Positions 1-58,253 of a DNA stretch of 64,000 bases are shown in pieces; position 1 is the stretch's first letter, and every line of letters starts with the position of its first letter. Made by a program: the position numbers and the translations under genes. The DNA is taken from assembly GCA_010405405.1 (NCBI GenBank), contig MU004235.1, forward strand, positions 1,871,539 to 1,935,538, read 5' to 3'. This DNA is from Microthyrium microscopicum (Eukaryota). The notes beneath the pieces are model-generated. The model ran no database searches, was not told the DNA's origin, and worked only from the letters and a program-made list of their open reading frames with translations.

Positions 1-483
1 ACGATCTAAGCTGCGCAAGGCATGATCTTAAACGAATTCAAATAGCCAATCTTGAGTGCTGCCGAGCCTAAGCGTGCCGCGAACTTGCTTACCAAAGCAT
101 GATCTCGCCTCTCAAATGCAGCGACCAGGGCGCAATTGCCAGATAAGGTTAGCGCCATAAGTAACATGCAGTTTTCCATCTCTCTTACAAGAAATCTTGA
201 CAAAGATATGACTTAGTCTCAGGTTCCCATGATTATGATTTTCCTAAAGAAGCAATAGTGCCCTGGTTCAGACGATGACTGAGCTTACGAGGAATGTACG
301 ACAGCTGTGATTATTCTAAATCGTTAGCTCGTGGATCTAGGAAATCAGTATGGACACAAAGTGTATAAATAAGATCAACAGACTGTCCATTGAACCTTAC
401 ATTTTCTTTCCAGACCCCTAATCTTTCTCCCGCCGAAGAGTCTTACTTGTCAGTTTCCAAATTCCCAGAACTATTTTACCACT

Positions 484-1274
484 ATGCCTACCCTCTCATT
501 AGAAGATCTCGTTCAGAGAAACATGTAAGTAGACGCATGAAGTAAAAAAATTTCAGACAATTGATGATATAATAGAGATTATGCCCCTTCTCATACGCCA
601 ATGCCTACGTTGGAAGAAGCAGCGGCAGCTGGTGGCGACATGGAGTGCACTTTAGTCAGTAAGTGAAGAGCATATCATCTCTCTATGCTTTATGACTAAC
701 AACAGCAGTCACTTGCGTCGACTTCCGTGTCAGAGTAGAGGAGATGTTACAGCTAAACGCACAAGGTATTTGCAAGACTTGACGTCTCTCTTCACAGCTG
801 GTCTGACATATCTTATAGATAAAGTACTCGTCTGTCGCAATCCAGGAGGACGTGTTGCGGCCGCTATGGAACAAATAATGTTGTTCAAAGTGTTCCTCAG
901 TCTCAAGCGAATCGTGGTCATTCATCATTCAGGTATATCTGCCTCACCCATATCGGCTTATGTTCAATTCTATAACTAACTTTGCGTCTAGATTGTGGTG
1001 CTAGTCACTTCAAAGATCACCTAATCCGCGAAGCGCTTCTAAACCAGCATCCAGATCATCCAGAGATTGAAAACATGGTTTTCGGTTCATTTGATAAGTA
1101 AATTGTCCTTCGCATAAGAGTTAATTTCTCCTAACAATATATAGCTTGGAGCAAGGCGTTCGCGACGACTTGGAAGTACTGAAGAACTCACCATTTGTCC
1201 CTGAAGAGCTCAAAGAACAATGTTTTGGATACACGTATGACATCAAGACTGGCTTACTCTCTCCAGTACATTAG
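484..1274 (+). CDS. Beta-class carbonic anhydrase (6 exons)
   Basis: Manual splicing at GT-AG introns gives MPTLSLEDLVQRN...VTCVDFRV...VCRNPGGRV...VVIHHSDCGASHF...GYTYDIKTGLLSPVH*. The CxDxR and HxxC zinc-binding motifs of beta-CAs are present. Confidence 0.85.
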
Positions 1275-1626: not shown

Positions 1627-2805
1627 TCATGCTGGCACTCCACCAAGTCCTTGCTCAGTAGCTTTCCACTGTGCTCCTCTGACCACTGCTCCCGGTGGGA
1701 TCGATGCTGGTGGAGGACCGCTCATACTCGGATTGCCACCATACCCCAGATGCTTCGCGTTTACACTGGCAGTGAAAGTATCTGATGACCTGGAAGCGGC
1801 AGCAATGGCAGCAACGTATTGCTTGTCCTTAGATGGATCACCAGTTGGACTTTGCGTTGATTGAGGTAATGGTTCAAGCTTTGGTGCAGTGCCTTTTGGT
1901 ACGTATAGCTCTGGACCAGGAATGGGATATGGGGAGACGTTACGCCAAATGTCGAAATACAGTCCCCTTTCTTGCTTGAATGGCTTGTATCCGCCGGGGA
2001 ATACCACGGTGTCTGATGGCTGGGCTGCGCCAGAACCTTCGACACGGACATTAAAGCAGTGAATGTAATGCTGTGAAAAGTATCCTGTAAGTCATACGGC
2101 CACTGGTTCGAATAATGGAAACTAACCTGCGGTCCCAGAAGCTTGTCAGCCTTCATGTGGTAAAGACTATCCTCAGTGGAGTAATGCAAAGCGATAAGCT
2201 CATGGCGTAGAACATAGTTTCCAGGTTTCAGATCGAATGGTATGACAGTAGAACTGACATTACCGTTGGCCATCATCTCATCCACGGCCCAAGTTTTGTT
2301 GTCTGCAGCTAGACCACTCTCACTGATCTTGAAGAACTTGAGCTTGTTGACGTCCACACTTTGAATGGAACCTTCGTACGGAGCCATGTAGGAAATGAGA
2401 GGTCCCTTATGGCTTGCGTACCATGGATTCCAGTTGAACTTGATACCAGCTCCTGCACGAACAGGAGCGACAATTGCTGGTGCCTTTGGCGATACACTGC
2501 ATGCCATATCTTTGGAGCTTTGATCCGTTATGAATGGCTTTGTATGCCCCCGCGAGAAAGCAATACTTTTGACCGCATATTTGTCATCTGCGCTATGAGG
2601 TTGTTGGTACATAACGCTTTAGCAGCAAATCCATTCACGCTTACGAGTTATATGCCCAATATCTAAAATTTAAGGTTAGAGCAAAGCACCATGCATTGGT
2701 GGTCATGATTTACTTTTTCCCATCGACTACTAAAGTTTGGACTCCTCCATGAGCCAGAGCACCAATCGCTCCTCCTAGAATAACGAAAGTAAGAGAAAGA
2801 CGCAT
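1627..2805 (-). CDS. AA9 (GH61) lytic polysaccharide monooxygenase, secreted, 3 exons, Pro/Gly/Ser-rich C-terminal tail
   Basis: Signal peptide MRLSLTFVILGGAIGALA followed by His1 (HGGV). Motifs SHKGP (second His), FFKISESG and YVLRHELIALH; GPQ|HYIHC (QxY) is formed across an intron. Confidence 0.92.
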
Positions 2806-3913: not shown

Positions 3914-5678
3914 ATGGCTACCGCTCCACTTCCGCCGAGTTTCTTACAGAGCTTACCGGTGGAGATCTTCCGCATGATTTTGGAGCAGTGTACAGAAGGG
4001 ACTAAACTTTCATCGGTCGCCCATCTTAGGCTTGTGTCCAGTGAGTTTGTCCACTTGGTTTTGGAACCAGCATTTTCAATGCGCACGCCTTTCGATATCA
4101 GATTTTGTTCGCATAGTGTTGAGATACTAACCAGATGCAGAGCCATTCGACTATGAATTCCAGCGTCAAATGGTAGAGAACGACCTGTTTCGCGAAAATT
4201 GGCACCCTCTACTTCCGAAATGCATGCCCAATGTTGTCGTCGCATATCTCATTCGCCAAGTTTCTCGGGATCCTGATGAGGACGGCAAAGTCGGAAATCA
4301 CCTCATCCAAACCATTCGCGATACCGCCGAAGATCTAATCAAAACTTTTCCCGACCCAGATCTGAACCTCGACAAATGCATCGAGAGCCTATGTCAAGCT
4401 ACGCTATTGAGCAGTGACCGTATAGGTCTTGACCGCTTACTGAACCTTCACGACTCGAAAGACGGGCCTGAAACATTAACACTGGGTGCAATACGCCTGG
4501 TACCAAGAACTGGGGGACTCAAAGTCAGAATACCTCGAAATGGTCCCTGGTTGCCCCAACGTACAAAGCACGAAAACTTGCTCGTTGCCGCAGCCTGTAT
4601 GGGCCTAACCCAAGAAGTAGCAGTCCTCCTCAAAAAAGGCATCAAAGACAACGCAACCTATTTTGGTACCGCCGTCACTGCAGCAATTCGAAACAACGAT
4701 AATGAGACAGCCTTTGCTCTATTTCCGCGACGCAAATATATGGACATACGATGGAAGGCGATATTCAAGGCCGCGGCATGGGCAGGAAACACTGAAGTCC
4801 TGAAGGAACTCTACAAGAAAACTCCGCTCTTCAACACTAAAAAAGGATGTTGCATTCCAGTCACAGCAACACTCGACGGACTCACAACTGCCGCTGGTCG
4901 TGGCCATGAAAACGTCATCCAACTCATGCTTCAAAATGACCCACATGTCCTTAGCGGCGCACTTGATGAATACCTCGAAGTCTACTTTGTGAAAAAAGGC
5001 AAAGATAAGCTTCACTCTATCCTTCTCGCGCATGCCGTCTGGTCTGGCCAGATGGCCACCGCCATACCACGCTTCGAGTACGATATTGACGTCAAAATGC
5101 AAGCATCAATAGGACCAGCTTCTCACGGCAAACTCGAGTTCGCCCTGAAACGCTTCGATAATAATATCGTTGACACCAATCCTAAGCATGTCGGTACCGT
5201 ATTCTACGTTTTCCGTCAAGCAGTGCGAGAAGGATACCTCGAGATCGCCGAACTATTCATCAAGCATGGATATTTCGACAAGCGCAATCAGTGTGATGAT
5301 GTGCTGCTGAATACTGTTGCAAAGCGAGGCTGGACTGAGATGGCTCGCCTTCTTAGTGAGCATGGAGTCCCGGTCAATACGCCACATTATCCTCACTCTG
5401 GCAAGAAGTGTGCTTTGTACTACGCCATTGCTAGAGGTCATGTTGATATGGTCCAGTTGCTATTGTTGGAAAAAGGCTGTGCCTTGCCAAATGCGGCTAC
5501 GATGCATCTATGGCTGAACGAGAGCGGAAAATATCGGAAGGACTCTAGGATTTCTGATCTTGTGGCAGAGGCTCGTGAGCGAATTGCCGTAGCAAACATC
5601 GCGGACCTCGTAGAAGAGGCGCGTAAGGATATGGCTGTGATGAAGGATGATACTGAGATGGACACTTCTGGGTTTTAG
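3914..5678 (+). CDS. F-box-like plus ankyrin-repeat protein (2 exons)
   Basis: Intron 4041-4140 (GTGAGT...CTAAC...CAG) joins FLQSLPVEIFRMIL...LRLVSKPF to the 502-aa ORF. Ankyrin motifs: AAGRGHENVIQLML, AVREGYLEIAELFI, ALYYAIARGHVDMVQLLL. Confidence 0.8.
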
Positions 5679-6561: not shown

Positions 6562-8047
6562 TCACCAAAGAGATTTCATCTTCTTTGCTTTGTGGTTTGT
6601 AGCAAATCCAGTGACCGCCCAGCCTGACTCTTCATCCTTGAGATCGAACCAGCATCCCAGAGGTAAATTTTGTTGTACCATATTCTTCACTTTCATTACT
6701 CCACTCACGCTCTGAAATTTTGCCTGGAGACTGAACTCCTTGAGATTGGCCAGACTACCATGGCTCAGTACAGTTTCGAAAAAGTCTTCCACATGTGCAA
6801 CTGTCACCAAATTTTCTTCGTCGGTGGCAGATGGCTTGTCCACTCTGATTATCACGAGTTTCGACAGCTTTACAAGGGGAAAGAACTTGAAGAACTGGGT
6901 AACTTCACTCATATGGTCTGCGAAAGGGCGGAATACCTCCAAACTGGCGAAACTGTTACTTGGAGCCATGGCGGATTCAGGCCGTAAGCCGAGGGTTTTG
7001 GCCGTTATGAGGCATTGTACATCTTTGATGGGCGATCTGCAGAGGCACAGGAGCACGATAGAGCCTTCCAAGTTCATAGACCAAGTCTTGATCCGTCGCA
7101 GAGCATGTAGGTTTATAATCGTTGTAAGTGAATGGGCTGACATGGCCAGGTTTCCACGCCCCGGGGGTTGTTGTATACCAACTTCTAGAGTCTCAAGAGG
7201 TATTTCCCACTTGCAGACATGATCTAGCATAGCTCCAAGACAATTCCATGGCGTCTCTTGCTCCCATTCCGTGTCATACTCAGGAATCAGTGGATCGAAG
7301 CGAGGGTGCCACCAATTTTCATCTGCGCCCCAGATTTTATTAATCTTGAGATGTTTGATATTGCTGTAAAGCAAGTAGCGTAACGGTATGACCTGATACG
7401 TTGGTCCGCAGAAAGTCAGACTGTCCATTCTAGGGAACAGGTCGGGACTTGCTCTCCACTCCTCCATCTCAGCGAAAAGGCCATCTTCGAGCACTGTTAT
7501 GCGATCCGTCAGGAGCACGATCGGCGGCGGATCCGGGCCTGTCCAATCGTCCTCAGGAGCCATTTGGCATGTGGAAAGATGATTAACATGCCTTGCATAC
7601 ATGTCGAAGCTAGACCAGTCTGTTTGTTCTAGCTTTCTCCTGAATCTCTGATGGAGAATTAGCTCATGCGACGACTAAAATTTGGCATCTTGTGGATGGA
7701 GCTTCACTACTGCTCCAACGAATGCTTCTTCTCACATGACATACCAGCTCCGAATTTCGGAAAACCTTCACACCATCACTCCTGACTTTTCCCTCCTCGT
7801 CGACCTTCACATACCAAAGACTTGCCGGGAAAGTTTTGACAATGTGTGCGAGTGATGGTACAACACGCCACAGATAAGGAAGCACCAGCGGAAAGAAAGC
7901 CTTGCAAGTGAGGCCTAGTGCTATCAAGGTCTCTCGCTCTTCAGCACTAGGTCTTCTGTCCTCTGTGCCCGTGTGTTCAGCTCTCTTTTCCTCGATGTTG
8001 TCGATAATGGCGAGTTGTATTTCAGGAATCGCTAGTGCTCGATGCAT
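6562..8047 (-). CDS. F-box-like family paralog 1 (most divergent member)
   Basis: MHRALAIPEIQLAII...LGLTCKAF...LWRVVPSLAHIVKTFPASLW, intron 7648-7744, then RFRRKLEQTDWSSFDMYARHV. The 3' end is uncertain. Confidence 0.75.
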
Positions 8048-9709
8048 GTTGCCCCGCTTCAAATTGACCTGGGCGACCTTCAACAAGACCAACGTAATTT
8101 GGCCTCCGCAAATTTGCGGAAAAGTAGAACGCTGACAAGGGAGATGGAGACCAACAAAGTGGCGAGTGGATTGAAGGGAGACTTTGGAGTGGTCAAAACC
8201 GTCGAAAGCTTCAGTGTACTGGTGTGAGTTGCACTTTCTATCCTCGTTGGATCAGATGTGTTCCTGCGTCTCCATTGGTTGCTTGTAATGTGCAGCTCTG
8301 GCAGAGACAGTACAGTATAATAATCGTGGTTTTATTTTCGAAAGCTAAGTTTCCTGATGCTACATAATCACCTGTTTCGTAAGTGAGATAAGGAAAGGAT
8401 GAAGCACAGCAATAACAGATACCTATTGAGCTCCCATAACGCTGCGACAACAAAGCAGAGTATTTTCTCAAGTCTTTCTGGTGAGACATCTACACCTTCC
8501 ACGGCCTAGAAACTAACCGAAAAAATCGTGCCTGGTAGCCCTACCAAGATTACCTCTACCGATGGAGAATTTCTCACGATCGAACACCAGATCGCCGACA
8601 TGTCGACATCGTTTCTTGCGATAGCCTTGGGGGACGAATGTTCTCAAGAGCCTTTCGCGATGGAGGGTGATGGCATCCTCTTTGACACTCCGGCTAATGT
8701 TTTGCAGCAGTGGTGAAATCCGTTCTTCCCCATTGTCGACCTTGACATGAGAACAGTAGTATGAGGGCGAAACAGGCGTTTTTGTATCGTGAGCCCGCGG
8801 GCGCCTGCGGCCCGCGAAATTTTCAGCACTAAAGTCAGATTGGCGATCAGATAGCCCTGCAAGAAGGAGGCCTCCAGTTTCCTTCTTTTGCGAATTGTCC
8901 CGAAGAAGATCGTCTGTAACCAGATCTCTCGTTGCGGCCTCCTACCAAGCGGTCGGTAAACTGTTCCGACAGAAAGGGACGCGTCCAAAGTGGTTTCCAT
9001 AGAATATCTGAAGAGCGTTCATGCTCGAAATGCCCCACGCTCAGAAGACTTCAAGAGCTAGAACAGACTCTGTAAGCTCAATCATAAAGTGGTGCTGCCG
9101 CGCGGTTGCGACTGATCCTCATGCATTTAGCGCGGTGACTTCCGCTTTCGGATATACTTTTGCAGATCCTGATAACAACTCTGAAGATGTTCGACAAGCA
9201 TAACAGGGTCTCCCCTCAACATCCACTTTGTTCACGTTGACTAGTGAAAGTCGTACATTCAGGCCGTTTGCTGCTGTACTTTCTGGTGCTTGGTTGGCTG
9301 TGAACAGTCTCGCGCGAGCCGTCCCAGGTCCAGCCTTGACCGATATCGATCTCTACCAGCTTCACGGATAGTCCCTATCAGTTCAAAGCAAACCCAACTG
9401 AATCACGTCCTTCGGCGGCCGGCGGCATACATATCAAGACCATGGCCGTCGCTGTTCCGTCGCCCTGCCGCCGGCGAACAAGAGCTCCGGTCTCCAGATC
9501 TCCAACTACATCCCACTAGGAAGAGTGGAAACTGACGAAAAGTCCCAGGCGAGACTTATGGAATCAGTGTTCGCAAAGGAAAGATCCATAAATTTGTGAG
9601 CAATTGGTCTGATATCGGTCGTAGTTATAACTCTCATGCACCAAGATTGAAAATAAGATTTGATCAAACTCGTTTTCGGGATTGCTAGAAACCATCTTCT
9701 ACCACAGCC

Positions 9710-11520
9710 ATGGCACTTCGCCAACGAGCAACGAATCTGAAAGACCGTGCAGTCACGAAGGCCAATGACCGTCTCCACGGACGCGGCTGGACCCTTCCTC
9801 GACAGGCAACCACTTTTGCGGACGATGGGGCGTATTCCAATGTCGATAGTGATGTTACCCCTCTTGACAGACGCACATGGACCTCGTGGACTATTCTTGG
9901 CTTCTGGTCCAGTGATTCCTTAAACGCCCAGGGCTGGGAGGCGCCGAGTTCTATCATCGCGGCTGGTTTGACGTGGAGAGAGGGTCTTTACTTGAGTAAG
10001 TTTCAGCCTTATAGAGCCTCGAGCACAAATGCTTACCGTGATACTCTAGCTGTGGTTGGATCATTGGTTGATACCATTCCTCTTATTCTCAATGGTGCTA
10101 TCGGTGCTCATTATCACATTCCATTTCCTGTGGTGGCTCGATCATCGTTTGGATTCTACTTCTCACGTTTTGCTATTATCGTCAGAGCTATCACTGCCTT
10201 GTTCTGGCATGCTATCCAAACATGGACTGGAAGTCAGGCTATGTTCCAGTGCATCCGTGCCATCTGGCCATCATTCAGAAATGTTCCCAACACCTTTTCA
10301 GACAGTGCAGGAATCACTTCTAATCAACTTATCGCCCACTTTGTCTTCTGGAGTCTCCAGTTCCCCATCCTGCTGATCCCTCCTCACAAGCTAAAATGGT
10401 TCTTCATCTTCAAGACCATCGTCGTTACAATCGTCGGTGTCGCCGTAGTCATCGCCATGACCAAGAAAGCTGGTGGAGTAGGAGACATCTTCGACCAGCC
10501 ATACGAGATCTCCGGCACAACTAAGATCTGGGTTACCCTCAGCTGCTTCTCCAGCGTCACTGGAGGCTGGTAATTTCCCCATCCCCATCAACCCTCAGCC
10601 AAATCGTATCTAACAATTTCCTCAGGGCAACAATGGCAACCAACATCCCCGATTTCACCCGCTACATGCGCAACCGCAACGGCGTCTACTGGCAAGGTCT
10701 CGCCCTCCCCATCTTCAGTCTCCTCATGGCCACCTTCGGCATCATCAGCACCAGCTGCGCCAAAGTCGTCTACGGCGAATACATCTGGTCGCCGATTGAT
10801 CTCGCTGACAAATGGGATGGACCATGGGGACGCTGCGGTGCCTTCTTTGTCGGCTTCTCATGGGTTGTTGGCCAAATTGGAACGAATTTGTCCGCCAACG
10901 TCATTTCGTGCTCGAACGATTTGACTGGCCTGTTTCCCAAGTACATAAATATCAGGAGAGGCGCTATCCTCGCTACTGTCATTGCGGGATGGGTTATGGT
11001 GCCTTGGAAGATCGTGCATAGCGCCAGCAGTTTGTTGACATTTATGTCTGGACTGTCGATCTTTTTGGCGCCGATTGCGGCTATGTTGGCGTCAGATTAC
11101 TGGATTGTCAAGAAGAGGAATTTCGATGTGCCGAGTTTGTATCGCAGATATGGGCGGTATCGGTATACGGCTGGTATCAACTGGCGCGCTGTGGTCGCGT
11201 TCTTGGTATCGGTCGTACCGAACATACCTGGTCTGGCGAAAGCTGTCAATCCAGCTGTGAAGTTGAGCGCTGGCATCGAACACGTCTACGATATCAACTA
11301 CCTTTGGGGCTTCAGCTCAGCATGTTTTACTTACGTGGTCCTGAGCAAGCTCTTTCCGGCGAAAGAGACGCTTTTGGATGCTCCTATCTACGAAGATATG
11401 ACGGTTGTGGATGGTGTGGAGTACGAAAACGATGGCACAGGCACATTGGGAAGAAATCTGGAAGTAAAGGCATATGATTCTCAAGAGAAGGTCCCAGCGA
11501 GTCATGCAAAGGACCTATAA
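9710..11520 (+). CDS. NCS1-family nucleobase/allantoin/uracil permease (Fur4/Dal4-like), 3 exons
   Basis: Motifs RRTW...GFW, HIPFPVVARSSFG, ATNIPDFTRY, PKYINIRRG, PWKI and DYWIVKK; multiple hydrophobic helices; introns near 9996-10049 and 10570-10625. Confidence 0.92.
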
Positions 11521-11711
11521 TGTCGAGAGCTATTTTACATGATTCATGTTGGCTACAGGTGTTGGAGGACGCTGCTTGTCAGGGCTTTCTATAGAAGTAC
11601 AATCTCGAGATTCAAACAAACCATTGTCATCCCAGGAGAGGCTAGTAGTTGGCGAGCCACTTGTCTTTCTGTTGTCGCTCTTGAAAATCAATAACATTGA
11701 GCCCTTCCAAT

Positions 11712-11807
11712 TTACCCCGAGACGGTCTTTTTGTCTAGAGCTTCATCCATGATCTGCCGCACCAATTCCGGGAGTCGTAGAGCGGGATGGGTATTGGCGA
11801 GCGTCAT
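11712..11807 (-). pseudogene. Truncated relic of a sixth F-box-like paralog
   Basis: Translates MTLANTHPALRLPELVRQIMDEALDKKTVSG*, matching MHRALAIPELQLLIL. DNA ctcgccaat-ACC-cat-ccc-gct matches (c/t)tcgccaac-ATG-cat-cgc at the starts of paralogs 2 and 4. Confidence 0.65.
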
Positions 11808-12405
11808 TGTAAGTTGAGGCTTCAACAGGTAAGGCCCGATATGGGAAAGCTTTAAGCAGCTGAAACTGAGAGCTTTTTGATGATGATGTTTATTGGCCGC
11901 TTCGATGAAGGGGCTGGTTGCGCTGGAAGGATTGAATATCGGTGACTCGTGGTGGAGGTAAGAGGAGGAGTGTGGTAGTGCTTTTCATGGAGAGTTTGGG
12001 AATGGAATGAATTCGCTGGGCGAGTCAAGATCAGATTTTGTTAAAGAAGTAACTGCCGCCTACAGGTGATTCTTTTCTTGGTATCTTACAGGTGCGAGCC
12101 AGCCGTGACTTTCCGTTTTGCATCGCGACTTCCAGCTCCCACTTCCAAACCCGCCTTTAAACTACTACCGAACAACCCGGAGCCGCTCTAGCAACCCTCC
12201 ATTGGGATGCCAGCCATAGCACTTCTTGAGGAAGATAGTAATGCAGGAAAAGAGCGCCTTCTGTTCCAGCTTTTCCTTCTTCAAAGCTCATCCGGATTGG
12301 GCAAGGATGGTGCTCGTATTGTCGGGCAATCGTTCCTCGAAGCAAATAGTACCCGGTCTGTCGCCGGGAAAGGCTCTCAATTTGCGAGAGCTCGTTTCAA
12401 AATAA

Positions 12406-14190
12406 TCAAATGGTCAACTGAATCACATTAGGGAAACACCGGCCATCGAGACAGAATGACTTCAATTGTTCATCCCACTTATATTCGCGCCGTTTCAGTA
12501 TCAACTTGCGGATCTTGGGTTTGGGGAAGTCAGACGGAAACCTTAGCCTCCTCATATCAGTGATTGCTCGATTGGCCACAAAGTCTAGCGTCAAAACCTC
12601 GAGATGTGGACAGTTCTCACAAAGCCAAATTACATGCTCCAAGTCAATCAAAGCGATTTCGTCTGCACTGTTGTTCGGCTCCCAAGAGGCCACAATCAGG
12701 TTGAGAGAGGCTATGGAGGGAAGACATGCAGCAATTTGCTTGAGCATGGAACCATCTAGCGGTCCAAGGTACGGTGCTATAATGTCAAAGCTTAGAAAGT
12801 GAAGCTTTGAGTGCCAGGAAAGAAATTTGAAAACCGAATTTCTCAAGCGGATTGACCCAGTGGCTGAGAAATGACCGAACTCAGATGCTTCGTTGTAATG
12901 CGTGTGTTCAATATTAAGAGAGAAATGACGAAGCTGCCCAGGCCCGTCGCTCACGGCCGGAGAGTCGAAGAAATCCTCCAAGGCTTTGTACGTTGGAGCT
13001 ATGAACGGTATTCCGGGCTGGAAACTGACTTCAATCTCCACACGTTGGAGAGACAAAGGATAGGCAAGCTGAGCCATCATTTCGGACACCAAATTGAGTC
13101 TTGAGATTGTCAATTTCAAAGTACGTAACTTCGGTAGAAGTGGCCCCTTGATCTTAGCCACGGATGTCCAATTTGTCAATGCATCGATTCTGCAGCCTAG
13201 CGACCGTAGTGGACAGTCTGCGAGTGCAAGGAGAAGTTGGTGATCTTCCAGTAAAGCCGGAAATATGTCGAGGCAAGTAAGATGAGTCGATTCTACGAGT
13301 TGTGTGAGGGGCGCTCGAAGTTCTGGCCAGTGAGCCGTTCTGGCTTTGAAGCTTAGCGAATTGAAGTCTCTGTTAGACGCTAGAGAGTTGAGGGTCTCTA
13401 TACATCTCTTCACGGTAGTCAGGGTTTCGAGTGCCGCCTGCGGCCGCGACCGCACCGGAAAGATGGGTTCATGATCGTGGAGGCGACAAGAAGCATTACC
13501 GACCGCATTGAGTTGTAAGCTCTTGAGGTTGTTATTGAAGAGATGCCGCATTGGTGTTACATCGCACTCCATACCTTGAGATATAGCAATATCTTCAAGG
13601 TTTGAAAACCATGTGCTGGCTCGTCGCATTTTGCTCATGTGCATAAACACAGAAGGATGAATCCGGGGCCAATCAGGCCAGGATTCCCAATTATTGCCTA
13701 GGCCATTCTGATTGATTAGGCGCTTAACACATCCCGCATACAGATCAAAACGAGTCCAGTCATCTTCGATCATTTCTCGGACAAAAACCTGTCTGATGTC
13801 AGTCTGGAAGTTTGTTTGTCTCAATGTCACTCGCCAGGATCAGCTGAACAAACTCACCAACCGGTTTGGCCGTAGAACTGTACGAGCACCAAGAATGTAG
13901 ATGCTTTGTGAATCTTCGTCGATGTTCTCATCCTTCCAGAGAGAGGGAGGAAATGTCTTGATCAACGAAATCAGCGAATCTGCCTGTTGCCATAGAATAG
14001 GGTAGGCCATCTCCCACAATGATCTACAGCAAAAGCCGAAGTTACGAATGTCGACCCTCTGCTTGTGAGAAAGTGCGTTGCTAGGATCTCCTTCGAAGGC
14101 AAGTTGGTCGCGTGTGTTGAAAGCATCATCAGCAACGCCCTCCACCAAGATTTTGTACACGATATCGTAGACAGTGAACAGGCGATGCAT
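12406..14190 (-). CDS. F-box-like/LRR-like paralog 2
   Basis: MHRLFTVYDIVYKIL...FGFCCRSLWEMAYPILW...LIKTFPPSLW, intron 13789-13857, VFVREMIEDDWTRFDLY...PRIHPSVF...WLCENCPHLEVLTL. Confidence 0.8.
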
Positions 14191-14918
14191 GTTGGCGAGT
14201 GCACTGGCGTCAGAGATGCCGGAGGCGTAGAGGCGCGTGAGGAGTTCAGTGATGGAATGACTTATGGAAAAGATTTGGACGACGAAGACAGCAGCCTCAA
14301 TAGCTCAGCATGACCACGTCGTGGAAGTCGGAAAGTTTGAAAACGATGATAGAAGCCAGGGAGGAGAAGACTAACGGAGAAGAAAAGACAACTTTGTGGT
14401 TGTGGGGTAACGTGTTGGTGTGGAAGCGACTAGAAGTAGCAGATTTGCTTTGGGAAAGAGCAAGGCAATGGTACCTTCCTATCTCGAATCGTGACTTCCA
14501 TCTACAGCCTGGTCTCTATCGTGCTTTCCCAGCTAACGTTCAAGGAATGCTAGCTCCCATCAGCTCCGATGTCTGCCAGGAGATCTTTAGAAGCAAGACG
14601 GATATGATTGCTGAGAGGTTAAGAGATATACTTATTAGATTATCGAATGATATTTGCCGAAAATTTCCATACAGGCACAATGAAGCAAGGCAATATAAGC
14701 AAAGACTTTTATTCTATCAGTGGCTACCTCTGTACACTACACAGTTCCTTATGTTATCGCAGTCGGTTGTCCAGTATCGTTATGACAAAGCTTGCTAACA
14801 TCACTTCTAATCCGATCTGAGCCATTCAAGAATTTCCAAAAGCGCTAGATTTACCTCGGAGAGGTTCGTGACATGAGCATAAAGTGGCGCCATGCAGAGA
14901 CCAAGGTGTTCGGTAATA

Positions 14919-17364
14919 CTAGGCGGTATCAAAAAGATTGTTCTTTGATGAAATTTTGCGGAACTTGATCCAATTTGAGAGGATAGGGTCAGGGGCTACT
15001 TCAAGGCCTGGGAAGCTCTGGGCGAGATACTTGGTGATTTTCCGAGGAATGGATCGAGAATATCTGAACTTTAGCAGTTCCAATGTCCGGATACTAGGTG
15101 TTGGCTTCTTCCAGGCTACATTGGTGGGTATGTGAGATGTGTCTACACCGCCCAATTTCAAGGTCTGTAGATGGGGACATTCGTAGCAGAGCCACACGAC
15201 ATCACTCAAGTCCAACGACTGATGGAACATTGACGTATCATCACTTGTATCTTCATCGGAGTTCTCATGAGGGCTTCCGTCAAGATTTCTACGAGAGGTG
15301 TTTCCAGAGCCTCCACCGAATCTCTGATCAAAGGTCATTTCAGAGTCTCTGCCAGGGCTCTGTTCAGAATCATATACAGAGTTACCGTCGGAATCGTTGT
15401 CAGAATCATCAGAAGAATCATCAGAAGAGTCATCAGAAGAATCATCAGAAGAATCATCGGAGGAATCATCAGGATTGACACCGGGGTCTTTCTGAGAAAT
15501 ATCAACGGAACCTTGGGCGAGACTATCATCTGAGCTTTCGTCAGAGCTTTCGTCAGAGCTTTCGTCAGAGCTTTCGTCAGAGCTGTCATCGGAGAAGGTG
15601 TGATTAGAGGTGTGATCAGAGATGTTTTTGCGGTTAGATCTCGAGTCTTTCTTCGCATTTTCAGCGGAGCTTTCATCGGAGCTTTCATCGGAGGTGTTAT
15701 CTGAAATTTCATCGCGGCTTACTCTAGCGTCCGTCTTGGACTTCTCGGCGAAAGCTTCTTCAGAGCTTCCATCGGAGGTGTCGTCAGAGGTGTCATTGAA
15801 GCCTTCAAAGCCACCTGGCTCAGCGAAATTAGCATACCGCATGTAAGAATCCGAGTCGTTCTCATAGACGCTGGCGAAGCCCGTGTAATAGTCGTCGTCA
15901 AAATCGTTGTAAAGGCCCATATGGAAGTCATCGTCAACATCACTATCAGAGTCATTATAAGTAACAGTCCTATTGTCGAGGCTGAGATGCTGTATGCAAG
16001 GAAGCGACTCAACGATATACTCCAGCAAAGGCCTATCCAATTGCCCAGTCAAGAATGGCAATACCCCGAGCGTTAGGTTGGTGAGTTTCGTGTGCCACGA
16101 AAGGAATTTCAGCAAAGAAGCTCTTGCGATCTGTTGCTGCTTGGAAGATGATGGCGAATGGCCTTTGAGAAGTTCGCCAACCAACGCAAAGCTTTGGAGC
16201 TGGCCGGAGCCTTCTGCCCAAACCAAAGCGTCAAAGAAGAGCGAGAATTCCTTGCACGTTGGAAGAGACAATTCTCTATCGGAGGGAGTATCGAGCTCGA
16301 CACAGAGAACGCGAAGAGCATGAAGATTGGCCAGTTTTGGTAGAATGGTCGTTAGATGAGCCAACTTTGGGACAGTCATCGTCAGGCTTGTAAGATTCGG
16401 AAAGAAAGTTTCGAGGTTCTCAGCCACTTTGAGCCAATGTTGCGGCGAATCCATCTGGCATTTCAGCGACTGTAATGAGGATTTGGCAAGCGTAAGGAGA
16501 AGCTCTTCGTCCTCCAAGAAGGCGGGCACAACACCTAGATTGACGATGGATCGGTTTTCGATAAGTAGTATGAGATCTTTTCGTAGCATTCGTAAGTGCC
16601 CCGTGGTTGCTTCGAAATTCAGTGAGTTGATGTTAGGCGCTGACGAAAAAAGGCTTTCTAGAAAGCTCTTTAGAGTGATGAAAGTTTCTTTGCGTCCCTC
16701 GTGGCGCCCATCTGAGTCGTTATGAGCCAGATCATCACTTGGCATACCGACTGAGGAAACATGCAAAGACTTGAGAGCTCCATTGAAGAGTTGTCTCACC
16801 GGAGATATGTCGCAGAACAATCCCTGCTCAAGTTCAAGTTCTTGAAGTTTCGGGAACCAAGTCGTAGGATGGCGCCATTTAGCCATCTGGGTAAACACAG
16901 AAGCATGAACACGAGGGGTGGAAACGTCCCAGGCACTTTCATCTTCCGTCTCGTCGTAGGGGACGAGCGTACGAACGCACTCCGAATACATGTCGAACCG
17001 GATCCAGTCTTCCTCAACCATATCTCGAGTAAATGTCTGCTTAGGGTTAGTGAGTGAAGGAATAACTCTCTTGAATGTCCAAGAATAATATGTGACTTAC
17101 GATTTGTTTCTGCATATTTCCTCTCAAGCCAGTAATTTTACCATGATGGGTGGTGTTTGAGACTCCTTCATCTTTCCAGAGATCTGGTGGGAATGTCTTG
17201 ATCAAGCATTCGAGCGACTCAGCTTCTTGCCAAAGAAGTGGATAAGCCGATTCCCAGAACGCCTTGCAACAAAGACCAAAGGATTTGATACTCGCAAAGT
17301 CCTCATTTGTGATGTTCTCCAATATCAGCAACCGAATTTCGGCAATTCCAAGAGCGCGATGCAT
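14919..17364 (-). CDS. F-box-like/LRR-like paralog 3 with a long acidic Ser/Asp insertion
   Basis: MHRALGIAEIRLLIL...FGLCCKAFWESAYPLLW...LIKTFPPDLW, intron 17037-17100, TFTRDMVEEDWIRFDMY...WLCYECPHLQTLKL. Confidence 0.8.
15400..15592 (-). repeat. Two coding 12-bp tandem repeat tracts, (SSDD)n and (SSDE)n
   Basis: Plus-strand units tcatcagaagaa (about 15400-15472) and gagctttcgtca (about 15527-15592), inside paralog 3. Confidence 0.9.
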
Positions 17365-17488
17365 TTTGACTGATGGAGTGGTGTCTTTGACGAAGCAGTG
17401 ATAGCGTTTATCGAATCCGATGGCAGGTAGAGATTACACTTCGCAAATGATGCGAGGGCAGATGTTGTGGTGAATGAGAGCAAGCTCT

Positions 17489-17762
17489 CTGATGAAGAAT
17501 TAGTAGCGAAGTGCGCAAGCTCAAACTATTGAGTCTTTGATGAAGAATTAGTAGCGAAAATGAGGTTGTGTGGAGCGTTGACGCTCACCTGCTGACTGAA
17601 AGCGAAAAGATTATTGAGGGAAGGAGCGAGGCAAATAGCGCCTTCCTGTTCAGATGTTGGTCCATTGTGACTTCCTGTATAGGTTTAATCGCCCGTAGTC
17701 CCTTCCTGTTTGATGCTGGTCCATTGTGACTTCCTCTTTTAGCCCTCCTCTATTTGATGCTG
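17489..17762. repeat. Local direct duplications upstream of paralog 3
   Basis: tgatgaagaattagtagcgaa occurs twice (about 17490 and 17538). ccttcctgtt..gatg.tggtccattgtgacttcct occurs twice (17641 and 17701), with a partial third copy. Confidence 0.85.
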
Positions 17763-18119
17763 TAACCACCCATCGAGTGGCCACAACGCTCAATGTACTT
17801 CCACGGCTACAATCTATAAAGAAAGATAATCGAGTGTCTTGTTGCCAAAAGACGATGCTGATTTTCTCGACTGGTTATAGATAGTAATGGAAACTACCTC
17901 ATCTTATATGTAGAAGCGGTAGTGGAAGCCATGGAACATGAGAGGCACATCATTTATTTTGCCTGTTCTGTCGATTGTTTGTGATTGTTCAATAGAAATA
18001 CAATTGTAATAAGCATGAGCAGCACCAAGAAAACACGTCTGCGTAATCAAGGACTGCTCGTGGTATTGCTCCAGTCTGAGGTTTCCTCGTCCGGCCGGCT
18101 AAGCTCTTGCCCAGCAGAT

Positions 18120-19912
18120 TCATAGCAAAGGCTGTGATGTAGGAGTGATAGTGTCTGTCAAGGCTTTTTGGACGAAAACAATCCATTTGAACAGATGGTC
18201 CAAAGGACACGCTTGAAAACCAGGGAACGTTCTGTCGAAATACCGGACAACTTGATCAACACGAGATTCCTTTAGCGGTAGTTGCCCAAGTCCCAAGCAC
18301 CGGAGTGCAGGCATTCGGTCCCTCTCCACTGGGTTCGGGATTCGAGATAAATCGACACCTTCTAGGGTCAAGTTCTCCAGATCAGGGCATTGGAAGCAGA
18401 GCCAAACAATGTCATCCAAGGTAAGTAGTTGTGGCGGTTCTTCCCAGTCCTCATTCTCACATGTCTCTATCAATTCAAGATTCTGTACGCGGGATAGGAA
18501 TGGAGCGATAAGCTCCAAGAAAGGCTTGTCTAGGCTCAGGGCTATCATCTCAAGGCGGAGAGTGATAAGCTGTGAATGACATGCCAGAAAATCCACCACT
18601 GAAGCTCTCAGACGAGCTTGTTCATGGTCCGAAGCAACAAAGTCCTCGGGGGGATCGGCCATTCCCGAAAGAACGAAGCCCCTAAGGCGGCCTTGTCCTT
18701 TGCTCGTCACCAAAGCATCAAAGAGTAGGAGTAATTCTGCGTTTGTAGGTGCCGCGCACTCGACGTTCCAAGTAAAATCAAGGTCGATCCGGAGACGGGA
18801 GAGAGAAAAGCGGCTGGCTAGGTGTACTAAAATTTCGACTGCGTCCTTGAGCCTTGGGATTTTCATTGCTAGATTTGTAAGATTCTGGAAGAGTGGTCCA
18901 ACATGATGGGCTACGTTCAACCAACTCTGTGATGAGCTTACGCAACAGTTGAGAAATTTCAATGGAGACTTTTCGAGTACGAATATGAGCTTTTCGTCTT
19001 CTAGTAATGCTGGGGATATTCCTAGACTTGTAAGTTCATGGGTCTGCACGAGGGTAATCATCTGGCTTTGGAGTTGTTGCAAATGTGCCGATGTTGCCAT
19101 GAAGTCCAGGCACTTGATATTTGGTGCTAGCCAGCATAAACCTTCCAAGAAGTTTTCCAACATAGCGAGGGTTTGGTCTCCTTGTTCTTCAATGCCATCG
19201 GTATCATCGGGGTCCATATCTAGATTGATACCGGATACACCGACGGATTCGACAGTCAAGAAGACCAGACTGTTGTTGAAAAGATTTCGTAGATAGATTA
19301 TGTCACAGAGCCATCCTTGGGGAACAACGATATCTGCAAGCCGTGGAAACCATGTTGAGGGGTGACGTGACCGGCTCATCCAGGCGAAAACATTGGCGTG
19401 GATTCGAGGAACTTCCTCGCTCCAAGGTCCAGCGTCTGGCACTTCCTCAAAAACGGTAAGCTTTTGAACACATTGGGAATATAGATCAAAGCGTGTCCAA
19501 TCATCTTCTACCATCCTGCGTGAGAAGTTCTGGGTAGCTTTAGTAAGGTCGTACGAGTACGGAAGTGGCTAAAGATGAGCCAGTAATGACAAAGAGGTGT
19601 ACTTACGATTTGCTTTCGCGAGTTACTGCCGGTGGAGATATTTTGGTCCCAGAAGTTGGCTTGATCTGCATTTTCAGGGAGCTCGTCTGTCCACAGCGTC
19701 GTCGGAAACGTCTTGATCAAACACTCAAGCGACGATGGTTCTCGCCACAGAACTGGATATGCTGCCTCCCAGAACAATTTGCAGCACAGGCCATAGGAGA
19801 GAAGCGAATGCTCTGGAACTGTCAACGTCCGGCTGCCGTCTTCGAACGAGACATCCACTATGTGATTCAGAATTAGTAGCTGCAGCTCCGGGATAGCAAG
19901 AGCGCGATGCAT
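18120..19912 (-). CDS. F-box-like/LRR-like paralog 4
   Basis: MHRALAIPELQLLIL...YGLCCKLFWEAAYPVLW...LIKTFPTTLW, intron 19530-19606, NFSRRMVEDDWTRFDLY...WLCFQCPDLENLTL. Confidence 0.8.
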
Positions 19913-20654
19913 GTTGGCGAATGCTGTAGAATTGAGAGCTGTAGTGATGGAGAAAAGATTTGATTTTGTGGTAGTTTTGGATTTCTTGGGCTGGCATGCT
20001 CGGAAGACGCATTTGGGAAGGCGCGACAGTGGCTACTGCCTGTTTTCCTATCGTGACTTCTACTCTAGGGAATATTAGGTATGCTACTAGGCTCCACCGA
20101 CTGGGGTGCCGAATGTACTAACAACGAACGTCTTGAAAGAATGCAATGTGAGGCATGCCATCGTTTGGAGAGGATGCTGGTAGCCGTCGCCATTGATGTG
20201 CTTGTACCAACGATCCTCCCTGAAATCAAGCGGTTGCTATCAAAGTGAGCTAGTTGAAGCTGAACTTAGAGGTTAACTGAAGCCGCGATCGCTGACAGAG
20301 CCCTGCCAGCAAAGGAGTAGATTGTTAGCATGACTTATTCATGACTCTCATCTCAAATGAGCGCATAACAAATGTGTCCATACCGATGGCTGTAACCACG
20401 TCCTTTGAAATATCGCACTCAGCAAAGTATCCAAGCCTCCACGTCCTCTATGGTGAGAAGCGTGTCCATGATTGATTGCCTGCACTGGAAGAGGAACGAT
20501 GTGATGTTGATGGAATTTTTCGAAATCAATTACTAAAGAAACTTTTGTATCAGTACACAGTACCTCCCGATTTGCCCATTGAATGATTAGTAGTAATACA
20601 AGAAATATTTTCTGTCCCCGCGCGCAAGCTAATTTCCAGAGCAGTTGTAAACGC

Positions 20655-22682
20655 TCATCGATCATGTGGACTAGCACTTGATTCAAATCCAGTATGACCA
20701 ATCATGCAATTCAGGTTCCTTAAGGGAGTGAGCCTCAACAGAGGGAAACTCCTTCGCAGAAACCAGGCAAGATGTCCGAGCTGAAAATCATAGACCTCGG
20801 AGCCGTTAAGATCCAGATGTCTAAGCATAGATGTCTTGTTTGTCTTTTCCAGGCCAGGTATGGTATGACAATCAATTTTGCCTAGAGTCAGGCTGCGTAG
20901 ATCTGGGCACTGGCCACAAATTCTTACAACATCGCCGATATCTAGGGTGCACTTTTGTCTTCCGAGATCAAGAGATCGAACCTGAGATTTATTAGTGTAT
21001 GATTCATGATACGCGAGCCAATGAACGCGCTGGGAGCCATCGAGTAAGATGGGAGCCACCGTGTTTTTGGTCTTATCGAAAGTCGACAAAAGCTGGGTTG
21101 ACACAGGGGACTGAAAGCTTACCCGAGGAATGGATGCGATTATCATCTCAAGAAATGGTCGACTAAAAGGCTCGACAAATGGTCTTTCCATCCAGAGGAC
21201 CACATCGGTGAGATTCGGGTGTGAATAGAGCGCTTTCCCGATCGTATAGGCAACGCGAAGTTGTTCGGCAGTCGGTCCTGTGGCGTGCGACCCTTCAATA
21301 TGGCTCCTACGGCCGCTCCGAAAAGTTAGATTGCGCAGCTGACCATGGCCATCGGTCGCGAGTAATTCGAAGAAGTCCTCGTAGTCTTTGCTAGTAGAAG
21401 CTGTAAAGTGTGATGTATCTTGTTCATAGGTCAATGAACGCAGAGAGTGTGGGTAAGCTATTCTACTTATGAGCCCAGTCAGCAAGCGCAGACTACGAGG
21501 CTTCACACTCAACTCAATGAGACTAGGGAAGAGAGGCCTGGAATATGTTAGCATATGGTTGGATATGAAACCATGACACTTCCATCACGTTCGGTGGAAT
21601 CCATAGCACTCGATTATAAACGCTTTACATGGGTGCCATCGAATGCGCGGGAACATACGAGAAGTTTTCCAGGTTCATCGGAGGTTGTCAATATCTTACC
21701 CAATGAGTGAAGCGGCGGAGACAAAGTCTGTCGAGTCTTTGAGCTCACAAGTTAGAGATGTCAGTGACGCCTCGGATATTGCTTGAATAAGTTCTTCTCC
21801 GTGTAGAGGTGCAAGAGAAATATCCAAGGTGGTCAAATTGGTTCGTGTTTGAAGGAGTGTAATGATTTGGTCCTCTAGGTTCTCAAGATCCTTGGGATCA
21901 ACGACTAATCGCAACGTGGTCAAATTTGGCGCAGAGCGGCAAAGACTTTCCATAATAGTCTCGTTTGCATTGTAAGTCCAATTTATCCATTCTTTGACTC
22001 GAAGTGACATATCTTCGCCGCTGGCTTCATCTTCCAATTCTTCATCGTCGATACACAGGTTGGATGATTGGAGAAAAAACGACTTGACATTCCTATTGAA
22101 GAGAATGTGGATTGGTTGAACGTCAAAGGGCAATCCATCATAACTCTCAATGTGTTCCAGAGCCGGCAACCAAGTCGTAGGGCAGCGCCACGTAGCCATG
22201 TGGGTGAACACTGAGCTGTGAATTCGAGGAGTGGTAATGAGATCCGTATCTGCTTCCTCATGATCTCTATCGGAATATGGCGACTCGTATATGTGATGAA
22301 GTTCCAGCATTCGTACGCATTGAGCATACATATCGAATCGGGCCCAATCCTGGGCAACCATGTCGCGTTTGAAGACGAATTGCTTTAGTAGCATACCTTG
22401 GTAAATGGAATCGTCTTCCTGCCAACCGGCGGGAAGAATTCGTGTTATCTCGACATCTTCCCAAAGGTCGGAAGGAAGTGTCTTAAGAAGGGATTCGAGG
22501 GAAGTTGCTTTGCTCCAGAGAAGAGGATAGACAACAAGCCAAAGACTTTTACAGCACAGCCCAAACGAGAACAATGTCAGATCTTGGTCATAACTGGGAC
22601 GGTACGGTTTCTCGAATGTACCTTCAACCACATTTTCGAGGATCATCAATTGTATCTCGGGAATAGCGAGAGCACGATGCAT
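20655..22682 (-). CDS. F-box-like/LRR-like paralog 5 (different intron set)
   Basis: MHRALAIPEIQLMIL...FGLCCKSLW...KQFVFKRDMVAQDWARFDMY with no intron. Inferred introns 21538-21699 and 20982-21122. C-terminal RICGQCPDLRSLTL. Confidence 0.78.
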
Positions 22683-22952
22683 GGTGACGGAAGATAAGTA
22701 AGTGATTTTGGCGGGCTGAATGCATATGCGAGCGAACTGACTGGACAGGCTGGGGATGAACAACTTGAACGGGCTCGATGTAGATCTTGATGCGAGTACT
22801 GTTGGCGGGCTGGATGCAGATGAGGGCGAGCTCAATAGGCAAGTTGAGGAAAAAAGAGGCCAGTTTCGATTTTTCAAGTTTTGGAGGTAACAGATTTGGG
22901 CGGGTTGAGTTTCCATAGTGACTGCCTCGTTTTAGGATCCAATGCGGTCGTG

Positions 22953-23022
22953 CCTTCCTTCAATTCATGCCGTTCTGTGTCGCGCCTTCCCTCAATTCAT
23001 GCCGTTCTGTGTCGTACCTTCC
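22953..23022. repeat. 32-bp tandem repeat (about 2.2 copies) upstream of paralog 5
   Basis: ccttcc(t/c)tcaattcatgccgttctgtgtcg(cg/ta) twice, followed by ccttcc. Confidence 0.85.
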
Positions 23023-23320: not shown

Positions 23321-25301
23321 TCAGTCGATATCCTCATCTTCCCTGACATGACCTCTCCCTCCCCATTCAAACCATCTCTTCCCGGCCACAATCACAAGCC
23401 TCGTCTCCACAACCCAGAGCCCAAGCATAACCATCTCTCTTATGGCTTCACAGACAACAACCTTGCCCACCAAACTTGCCACCGCTTTTATCGACATCCT
23501 CTCCGGCGCCGGATCCAAGAATCTCAGAAATCGCTCACTTCTTCCTATCGGTCCACTCGGCATCCCATGTGTATGCACCCACCAGCGTACCACCTGCGGC
23601 AGCAGCCACGCATCAATCGAGAGCAGACCCATCGAGCAGATGCTGCTAGTGACGATCGAGGCTAATCTCTTCTGCGGAAGCAGCGTGAGCGGTGTTTCAC
23701 GACGGGTGCGAGCCCCGCGACGTCGACGCACGCGGTGGGTCGGTGGAGGGATCGTTTCGTAGTACTCAATGTTAAGTTGGGGCATAGGGCCGTCCGCAGA
23801 CTCGACCTCGGTAATTCTGATGCTGTGATTTACTTCCTCGGGGTTGGAGTCGATCGGGGAGTTTGATGATGCGGAAGGAGGATTCACCCGAGCTGAAGAT
23901 TGAGAAGCTGGAGGATCTTGTTGAGTGTTGGCTTGCGTGTTGTCTGGTGTTTGACTGGACGGCTCTGCTTGATGGGAAATTCCATCTGTTGATAGTGGGC
24001 CAAAGTCTAGTATCAAGCCCATAGGTGGCAAATCAGGCGCTGGAGTATTGACCGGCTGGTTGACAGTAGCAAAATTTTCCAGGTTCAATTCAAAACTACC
24101 AACTGGCAGGTCCGCGTTGGCTAAAGTTTCAAGAGCGTGGCCGGCAGTTCGTTCCTCGGGACGATGCGCATTCTGTTCCACATCTACAGGTATGGGCATT
24201 TCCGCGGTCGCGGGCGTGTAGCTTTCTTCTTCCTCTCCTGTGTATTGGAACATCTCTAGGATGAGCGGTCTTACAATCCGATGAAGAAGGTGAGTGTGAA
24301 CAACTCGTCTAACGGCACCTTTGTAGAAATACAGCCACATTGGTACACAGCTCATCTCGAACCGTAGTGGAAACACGGGGTTGAACGGATTGAAATCGTT
24401 TATATTTGGAAACATCTTGGACGTAGATATGAGACCGAGGGAATGGACTAATCCATGAAACCGAAGAGGGAAATCGACGAATTCGTAAAATATATGCAAT
24501 CTGGAATATCAAATGAATTAAGGTACTTGTCATAGTAGCAGGGAGAACACACCCAAATGACACGTTGGTCGTCAACGCTATCAGTTTTTGCCTCGTGCGG
24601 AGGTTAGATATCTTTGCAAGTATCATTCTAAAGATGAAATAGCAGGTTGCTGGTGCGAGTAATGGTGGTTGGCAGACCCTTTCCAGGAGGTTAGCAGGAG
24701 CTCCAGCAAATCCAAACATCCACGGTCCAAAGAGGGTATAATCCTCGGCAACAGTATAGGCAAGGGTGTCTTCAGCTTTTGGAGGAAGTGCCTAGCCTGG
24801 GTCTTAGCATTGGTCGAATCGAGTGGGAGTTGTTTGGTAAGAGACTTACTAGCAGTCGGCACATAACGTTTGATATCCAAGTCTCGGATAAACTTGAGAT
24901 GATAATGCTAGCTAAGGTTGTAGGCACCAGTATCTCTTCCTCAGCACGAACGATTTGATGATCAATTTCGTCGTCAGTCTCTTCGGCACGTTCAACAACA
25001 CCAAACACGCAAAGCACATCATTGGCAGCTCGTCGTAACTCTCTGCCCATTTGCTGTGATCTCGGATTGATTGGTCGATTTCTTTCATCATATTGCTGAA
25101 TATCTTCGGGATATTGGCCGTCTAAAAGTTCTATGGGACGCGAGCTACCGGTTGTGTTCGTGGATGTCAGAGTATCCCAGCCAGATTCCCATGGCGGTGA
25201 CCAGATCGAGCGGCCCTAGAATAGTTAGTTAAACATGAACTTTACATAATAAAGAGCACGCTTACCCAGGCAAGGTTTTCTAGATACGGTAACCGGCCCA
25301 T
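23321..25301 (-). CDS. Uncharacterised multi-exon protein, probably membrane-associated and conserved in filamentous ascomycetes
   Basis: MGRLPYLENLAW|GRSIW...IQQYDERNRPINPRSQQMGRELRRAANDVLCVFGV..., spliced to the 392-aa ORF ending KRWFEWGG. Internal exon boundaries are approximate. Confidence 0.6.
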
Positions 25302-25698
25302 GATGAAGTTGTCACCGGTCGAGGTCGATGGATGGAGAGAGACGACGCGCCGTATTTGTACACATGGTTTGCGACTGTTCTATCGTGTCTGACATCACAA
25401 CAATCACAGATCCTGGAACGCAGACTGAAAGAACTTGTCAAACTGCACACGCGTGTTTGTTGGCAAGCGCCTCAAAGAAGATGCCCAGTATGATGTAGAG
25501 AAGGAAAGGAATATCATGATTGGAAGTTAAGGCAAGAAGGGAGCTAACGCACGGCCCACAACGCCAAGATTTCGTGCAGTTCTTGTCCAATTTTTTTTTT
25601 GAAAGAGTTCGGCCCACCACCACTCTTTTCCTACAAATCCGCCTTTTGCGCCTGCACTGCTACTTGCTTTTATTTCAGCAGAGAATCCAAGGCGCGTC

Positions 25699-56981: not shown

Positions 56982-58253
<1,272 letters not shown>

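Follow-up and report, generated by a model that had tools for sequence, protein, structure and literature searches.

An old array of five genes predicted to encode F-box/leucine-rich repeat proteins in the ascomycete Microthyrium microscopicum

What do five co-oriented "hypothetical" genes on one contig of the leaf-litter ascomycete Microthyrium microscopicum encode, and what kind of gene family do they represent? The genes are paralogs on the minus strand of contig MU004235.1 (assembly GCA_010405405.1), at 6562-22682 of a 64,000-nucleotide stretch (contig positions 1,871,539 to 1,935,538) that we call the window; they run from the stop codon of copy 1 at 6562 to the ATG of copy 5 at 22682. 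An earlier note, made from the sequence alone, had described them as F-box-like/leucine-rich repeat (LRR)-like proteins and proposed a birth-and-death array of rapidly diversifying receptors. Sequence comparison and a structure model make an F-box/LRR architecture of the five copies very probable. That they would act as ordinary substrate receptors of SCF ubiquitin ligases, with an F-box and an LRR body, is our preferred reading, to which we assign a probability of about 0.68.

Gene models for copies 1 to 5 (c1-c5) were built by listing the open reading frames of the minus strand across 6562-22682 and searching there for introns:

c1, 8047..7745 + 7647..6562, minus strand, 462 amino acids, identical to public protein P0003; F-box-like exon 7745-8047, intron 7648-7744, LRR exon 6562-7647
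c2, 14190..13858 + 13788..12406, minus strand, 571 amino acids; F-box-like exon 13858-14190, predicted intron 13789-13857, LRR exon 12406-13788
c3, 17364..17101 + 17036..14919, minus strand, 793 amino acids; F-box-like exon 17101-17364, intron 17037-17100, LRR exon 14919-17036
c4, 19912..19607 + 19529..18120, minus strand, 571 amino acids, the copy used for structure modelling; F-box-like exon 19607-19912, intron 19530-19606, LRR exon 18120-19529
c5, 22682..21700 + 21537..21123 + 20981..20655, minus strand, 574 amino acids; introns 21538-21699 (162 nt) and 20982-21122 (141 nt, in frame)

With canonical GT..AG introns removed, the reading frames are open over 462-793 codons in all five copies. 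Copies c1-c4 share the position (alignment column) and phase of their first intron; c5 lacks it and has two others. The c4 model matches public protein P0001 (hypothetical protein BT63DRAFT_479364 [Microthyrium microscopicum]) letter for letter. The description as a tandem array of five holds insofar as the paralogs are collinear and on the same strand; the run is interrupted between c1 and c2 by a plus-strand NCS1 permease gene unrelated to the F-box/LRR family. A sixth copy was not found in the window (tblastn, E<=1e-3).

The copies are related far beyond chance, with pairwise BLASTP E values from 1.4e-17 (c1-c2) to 5e-113 (c3-c4) and identities of 25-43%. Alignments place the N-terminal MHR, xLxC(K/R)..(W/F)....P.LW, KT(F/L)PxxLW and DWxxFDxY in all five. 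PR(I/V)HxxVF and the C-terminal CxxCPxLxxLxL occur in each of c2-c5 and neither occurs in c1. That copy breaks off ahead of its final LRRs and the CxxCPxL block, and the DNA beyond its stop codon holds no trace of that block (no motif in three frames, best tblastn E 0.13). All of the motifs in the earlier note, including the missing block of c1, were recovered in this way. Its statement that the bodies differ greatly between copies went too far, as c2-c5 align collinearly over their entire length. In 8 of 10 pairs, conservation is nevertheless higher at the N-terminus than in the LRR body (59% versus 40% for c3-c4 and 48% versus 18% for c1-c5, for instance), a pattern that fits a constant docking module joined to variable target modules.

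AlphaFold2 modelled c4 from a family alignment with a predicted local distance difference test score (pLDDT) of 86.3 and a predicted template modelling score (pTM) of 0.88. The model has three N-terminal helices (residues 8-24, 31-43 and 45-55, with a variable loop after helix 1) followed by an LRR solenoid of the ribonuclease inhibitor-like (RNI)/FBXL type. In the solenoid, 15 short strands, spaced 24-50 residues apart, are interleaved with helices, and most strands fall on L..L.L. The top Foldseek matches were TIR1-ASK1 (2p1m_B, 5e-8), KDM2A-SKP1 and COI1-ASK1 (3ogl_B, 1e-7). VIA-align gave Z 19.5 for FBXL17 (320 residues aligned, root mean square deviation (rmsd) 4.4) and Z 19.2 for FBXL2 in its SKP1 complex (366 aligned, model 39..552 on chain 9..400); Rad7-Elc1 (Z 17.0), the NLRP3 LRR (Z 17) and ribonuclease inhibitor (Z 16) also scored. 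The nearest Atlas clusters of whole c4 are basidiomycete proteins named 'F-box domain-containing', with full-length superposition on FBXL14/20 and COI1/TIR1-type clusters.

Profile searches tie the copies to a much larger family. With the five-copy profile, an exhaustive HMMER search returned 1545 proteins (E<=1e-3), of which 223 also pass E<=1e-10 and 7 pass E<=1e-30; several of the matches span profile positions 1-540. A word-index search with c4 exon 2 or the five-copy alignment found only the protein itself; that method misses relatives at 20-40% identity. An alignment of 130 members carries the signature MHRCLxIxEI..., LAxTCRxFxxPALDxLW, PxDLW and FxRxxxxxDWxRFxxYAxRVRxL, and at the C-terminus AWPxLxxLxL...LAxxCPxLxxL. 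Conservation of M1, H2, W56, P70, R106, D112, W113 and Y119 (c4 numbering) is 90% or more in both the 130-member and an 88-member alignment, window copies included. Searched against the sequences of the PDB, the 130-member profile matched FBXL2 (2.2e-18), TIR1 (3.6e-18), MAX2 (5.1e-16), COI1 (1.5e-15) and Skp2 (1.7e-7); its top matches were all F-box/LRR proteins, ahead of plant receptor kinases.

Part of the family also has F-box-like matches of its own. Among 88 members, 35 matched the Pfam family PF12937 (F-box-like) at E<=0.01, the best at 1.5e-6, and in 6 of 18 members inspected the match lay at about residues 8-52, at the N-terminus, in the stretch homologous to MHRALAIPEI...LW. LRR families were matched at the same threshold, LRR_14 in 20 members, LRR_4 in 6 and LRR_At5g56370 in 6. 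Residues 1-75 of c4, taken alone, have as nearest named Atlas clusters groups in which 23-82% of members carry PF12937, and they superpose on the PF12937-labelled parts (template modelling (TM) score by query 0.54-0.68), one of these in an ascomycete cluster named 'SCF ubiquitin ligase complex subunit'. The F-box plus variable LRR layout assumed at the outset is backed by family-level Pfam matches, the AlphaFold model, and fold and profile matches.

Transcription was monitored through a single run, X1, the only one covering the region; it is stored as contigs, its kind was guessed, and its record carries no RNA label. In c1, c3, c5 and the permease gene, X1 contigs leave out GT..AG introns of canonical form that lie on the expected strand. 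The contigs therefore come from RNA, and transcription and splicing of c1, c3 and c5 follow the gene models. The joints are 7647>7745 in c1, 17036>17101 in c3, and 21536>21699 and 20979>21121 in c5. Two further introns lie in 5' leaders:

8370..8422, minus strand, c1 5' leader intron, 51 nt, joint 8369>8421 (cut +2), ends CT..AC, from an X1 contig
17535..17588, minus strand, c3 5' leader intron, 54 nt, joint 17534>17589, ends CT..AC, from an X1 contig

The c4 intron agrees with the public model P0001, and that of c2 is predicted only. Public protein sets look incomplete for c2 and c3: P0004, the last 224 amino acids of c2, is the sole part of that copy in the public protein set, and no c3 protein was among the listed matches of the five-copy profile search, although c3 is part of the query. 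The public c5 model, P0002, adds 78 amino acids from an ATG at 22916 through an open in-frame leader (22683-22916), and lacks 21 further residues of the RNA-consistent c5, from a stretch that the other copies conserve. Relatives begin at MHR, with M1 and H2 almost unchanging across the family, and this speaks for 22682 as the start; judged by this conservation, the ATG at 22916 is probably not the c5 start. Near the upstream ATG lies a 32-nt tandem repeat of 2.4 copies (22947-23022). The RNA contig over c5 continues past 23000, towards the open frame at 23321-24508.

As ordinary SCF receptors, the five proteins would work as follows. The three-helix F-box-like domain (about 8-55 in c4) would dock on Skp1 of the SCF (Skp1-Cul1-Rbx1) ubiquitin ligase. 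A family-specific linker, KTFPxxLW ... FxRxxxxxDWxRFDxY, would follow, and then a curved solenoid of about 13 irregular RNI/FBXL-type LRRs, predicted to end in a CxxCPxLxxLxL FBXL repeat in c2-c5 and to be shortened in c1. The LRR surface would select a substrate and present it to the Cul1-Rbx1-E2 module for ubiquitination. This follows the general scheme of SCF ligases, with Skp1 as docking partner of the F-box and the LRR part presenting the substrate (PMC3385136, in the portion available). Divergence among the copies is greatest in the LRR body, so a separate substrate would be expected for each.

Several results weigh against this reading. The Pfam F-box models (PF00646, PF12937) match none of the five copies, scanned as 10 exon translations, even at E<=1; full-length P0001 likewise has no Pfam family at E<=0.01, and only one of the six located PF12937 matches in relatives exceeds the Pfam cut-off of 24.3 bits. 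The isolated N-terminal domain, modelled at pLDDT 71.7, had no Foldseek match in the PDB, and in a wide VIA search generic helical repeats (Z 5.7) outranked true F-box chains, of which 5ibk_E came at rank 25 (Z 4.3, rmsd 2.2, 44 aligned, 20% identity) and FBH1 at rank 50 (Z 3.9); the query is a helical domain of only some 50 residues. The five-copy profile alone found nothing among PDB sequences better than E 0.033. The sole LRR match among the 10 exon translations was LRR_9 in c3, at E 2.7e-4 and below the Pfam cut-off. Over c2 and c4 the X1 contigs are sparse and unspliced and no joint is listed; similarly sparse cover is also found between genes. Finally, c2 (TVYDI) and c3 (GIAEI) do not have the proline of the (L/I)PxE(I/L) start present in c1, c4 and c5; the N-terminus of c2, MHRLFTVYDI, is the most degenerate of the five. 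A proline at this position is important for F-boxes. Going by these substitutions at the start of helix 1, c2 and c3 may be weaker Skp1 binders or non-binders.

Some of these points would also suit LRR adaptors with a degenerated F-box, in which the fold is kept and Skp1 binding lost, the proteins serving another cullin adaptor in the style of Rad7-Elc1 or acting as non-ligase scaffolds. Rad7-Elc1 is itself a good structural match (5zb2_A, 331 aligned at the Z score above, model 56..553), no copy has a Pfam F-box match, and the N-terminal motifs of c2 and c3 are altered. F-box proteins that do not bind Skp1 are mentioned as exceptions in the accessible part of PMC3385136. Yet residues 1-75 can be superposed on segments of canonical SCF subunits that are labelled PF12937, the near invariance of M1, H2, W56 and P70 across 88-130 members argues for a constrained functional N-terminal module, and no part of the paralogs is better conserved than the N-terminus. 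We consider degeneration unlikely, and retain the reading as ordinary SCF receptors.

Where else does the family occur? Names were looked up for 30 listed matches, comprising the top-scoring ones, all clade members from outside the window (see below) and a few others; the remaining 116 listed matches were left out, and the window copies' own public models (P0001-P0004) were set aside from the counts. Of these 30, 18 were from Agaricomycetes, three from M. microscopicum and nine had no species name; none was from another ascomycete. Agaricomycete proteins with the UniRef name 'F-box domain-containing protein' were among the profile matches at 1e-34 to 1e-12. This is suggestive only, since Agaricomycete copies are very numerous and 30 names were looked up, but it points to a family that outside M. 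microscopicum would be mainly Agaricomycete.

In a 63-row likelihood tree, c1-c5 form a clade with the environmental protein P0005 (Shimodaira-Hasegawa approximate likelihood ratio test (SH-aLRT) 99), within which c2-c5 group together (98). In a 142-row FastTree the copies fall within a 15-row clade (support 94) made up of the five copies, three M. microscopicum proteins from other contigs (P0008, P0042, P0097) and seven environmental proteins. As far as sequence phylogeny goes, these trees show that local duplication produced the array, in a small clade of M. microscopicum and environmental proteins. The clade does not fall within any single Agaricomycete group and thus gives no indication of a recent transfer. 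Single-protein scans of metagenome contigs with P0005 and P0044 gave no confirmed locus. In the accessible portions of the literature on Dothideomycete F-box families and cross-phylum F-box transfer we found no paper on this family in ascomycetes; Agaricomycete supplementary tables may list ascomycete counts. A rather speculative account, which we hold to be doubtful, would make the Microthyrium clade a relic or an ancient cross-phylum acquisition of an Agaricomycete-type F-box/LRR family in poorly sampled Dothideomycete-like lineages, followed by local duplication into receptors with distinct, possibly conflict-related targets.

The copies are old. Pairwise synonymous divergence (dS, Nei-Gojobori (NG86)) was undefined in eight of the 10 pairs and 2.1-2.6 in the other two, and DNA repeats between copies reach at most 70% identity over 114 nt. 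Saturated synonymous sites and low DNA similarity indicate ancient duplications and leave the ratio of nonsynonymous to synonymous divergence (dN/dS) unreadable. Retention of the family motifs after synonymous saturation requires long-term purifying selection.

This age bears on the birth-and-death proposal, according to which the array would consist of rapidly diversifying receptors for non-self or antiviral recognition. There are signs of turnover: the truncation of c1, intron loss and gain in c5, and in c3 an insert built partly from repeats:

15218..15953, minus strand, Asp/Ser-rich insert in c3 of about 245 amino acids, between the LRR body and the C-terminal block; boundaries approximate, from the model

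The insert, probably disordered, contains 12-nt (four-codon) direct tandem repeats at 15402-15472, 15532-15584, 15596-15625 and 15659-15693 (Tandem Repeats Finder, alignment). It lies at the same place as the in-frame 141-nt intron of c5, so length seems to change readily at this site, directly ahead of the C-terminal LRR block.

The surroundings of the array are as follows:

1761-2618, minus strand, AA9 lytic polysaccharide monooxygenase, further out from c1
4131-5678, plus strand, ankyrin-repeat protein, directly beside c1
about 9071-11520 (start approximate), plus strand, NCS1 (cytosine/purine/uracil/allantoin-type) permease gene, PF02133 at E 4e-34 and 2e-52, four GT..AG joints
23321-24508, minus strand; 33244-36290, minus strand; and 53315-54517, plus strand: long open frames with no Pfam match at E<=0.001
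25603-29089, plus strand, two long WD40-repeat open frames, possibly one gene, first 250 residues with no Pfam match
44691-46527, plus strand, OPT oligopeptide transporter
54815-56002, plus strand, HET (heterokaryon incompatibility) domain protein, PF06985 at E 2.3e-24
57066-58079, plus strand, DAHP synthase
59028-61271, plus strand, GH3 glycosidase
62001-63699, plus strand, MFS transporter

Tandem layout, an LRR body that varies against a conserved N-terminus, the turnover signs just given, HET-domain, ankyrin and WD40 genes in the same window, and the lack of a one-to-one orthologue in named species among the 30 looked-up matches all favour the birth-and-death proposal; F-box proteins are also called fast-evolving in the portion of PMC10282164 available to us. 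On the other side, "rapidly diversifying" finds no support in old duplicates whose dS is undefined or above 2 in all 10 pairs and whose identity is 25-44%. No NACHT, NB-ARC, HET or TIR domain was found by Pfam in the 10 exon translations, no NACHT/NB-ARC, HET or comparable effector domain is among the seven Pfam families listed for 88 relatives, and the neighbouring WD40 gene showed no canonical F-box and no NACHT domain. The array's surroundings are ordinary metabolic and transport genes for the most part. The analysis yielded no support for a non-self or antiviral role, and we regard defence by birth and death as improbable.

A decaying array, in which some or all copies are functionless pseudogenes, is more improbable still: c1 is C-terminally truncated, c2 is public only as a 224-amino-acid fragment and has the most degenerate N-terminus, and c3 is absent among the listed profile matches, but every frame is open over its 462-793 codons, c1, c3 and c5 are spliced in assembled contigs, and the motifs are retained despite saturated synonymous sites.

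The analysis supplies a fold-level annotation for five "hypothetical" genes and corrects the public models of c2, c3 and c5. The array opens no new mechanism, and the Agaricomycete expansion is, by the parts of the literature seen, already published. Its interest lies mainly in phyletic distribution, M. microscopicum being an unexpected host: the F-box family hugely expanded in mushroom-forming fungi is also present as a small, old ascomycete cluster that is expressed, with splicing seen in c1, c3 and c5. If that pattern holds under full sampling, it would bear on when the family originated and on whether it passed from one phylum to another.

How do the predicted proteins compare with known systems? 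Animal and yeast FBXL proteins (FBXL2, FBXL17, Skp2; fungal Grr1/Fbp1) likewise have an F-box and then an RNI-like LRR solenoid with 'cysteine-containing' repeats. The array copies differ from them in standing at only 11-14% sequence identity, in irregular repeats of 24-50 residues, in a variable loop inside the F-box, in the family-specific DWxRFDxY linker and in lacking a Pfam F-box match of their own; as far as tested, they are not orthologues of Grr1 or Fbp1.

The plant receptors TIR1, COI1 and MAX2/D3 gave the best Foldseek matches and strong profile matches (3.6e-18 to 1.5e-15). TIR1/COI1-type proteins are similar in length to c4, about 570-590 amino acids, and superpose over its whole length in the Atlas comparison (TM 0.57-0.59, residues 1-3 to 566-568). 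They belong to a different kingdom, and Foldseek TM-scores of the c4 model to these plant receptors are only 0.35-0.49. The likeness is architectural; there is no sign in the array copies of a small-molecule or inositol-phosphate pocket. Rad7-Elc1, a yeast cullin-ligase LRR adaptor (5zb2), has a solenoid of a size similar to that of c4. Its alignment begins at residue 56 of the model, leaving the N-terminal helices of c4 uncovered, and Rad7 docks through a box other than the F-box.

Lineage-specific tandem arrays of F-box genes are known from nematodes and plants, where a conserved F-box is paired with a variable target-binding domain and adaptive evolution has been proposed. Those arrays are large and include recent duplicates under measurable positive selection, whereas Microthyrium has five ancient copies with saturated dS.

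The closest comparison is with the Agaricomycete F-box family. As reported in the available text of bioRxiv 10.1101/349894, this is the largest expansion in Agaricomycetes, with 67-1,199 copies and an average of 274, where filamentous fungi have 60-90; the same source (Krizsan et al.) attributes it mostly to recent tandem duplication, with developmental regulation, and on this account the earlier claim that such a locus had no functional description was too strong, the array being in that family. Shared features are the MHRxLxIxEI..., LW, PxDLW and FxRxxxxxDWxRFxxY motifs, the C-terminal CPxLxxL and, going by that published mode of expansion, tandem duplication. The differences are that the host is a Dothideomycete ascomycete, that the Microthyrium set is small (five in the array and at least three elsewhere in the genome, P0008, P0042 and P0097), and that its duplicates are old and lie in a separate clade with environmental sequences only.

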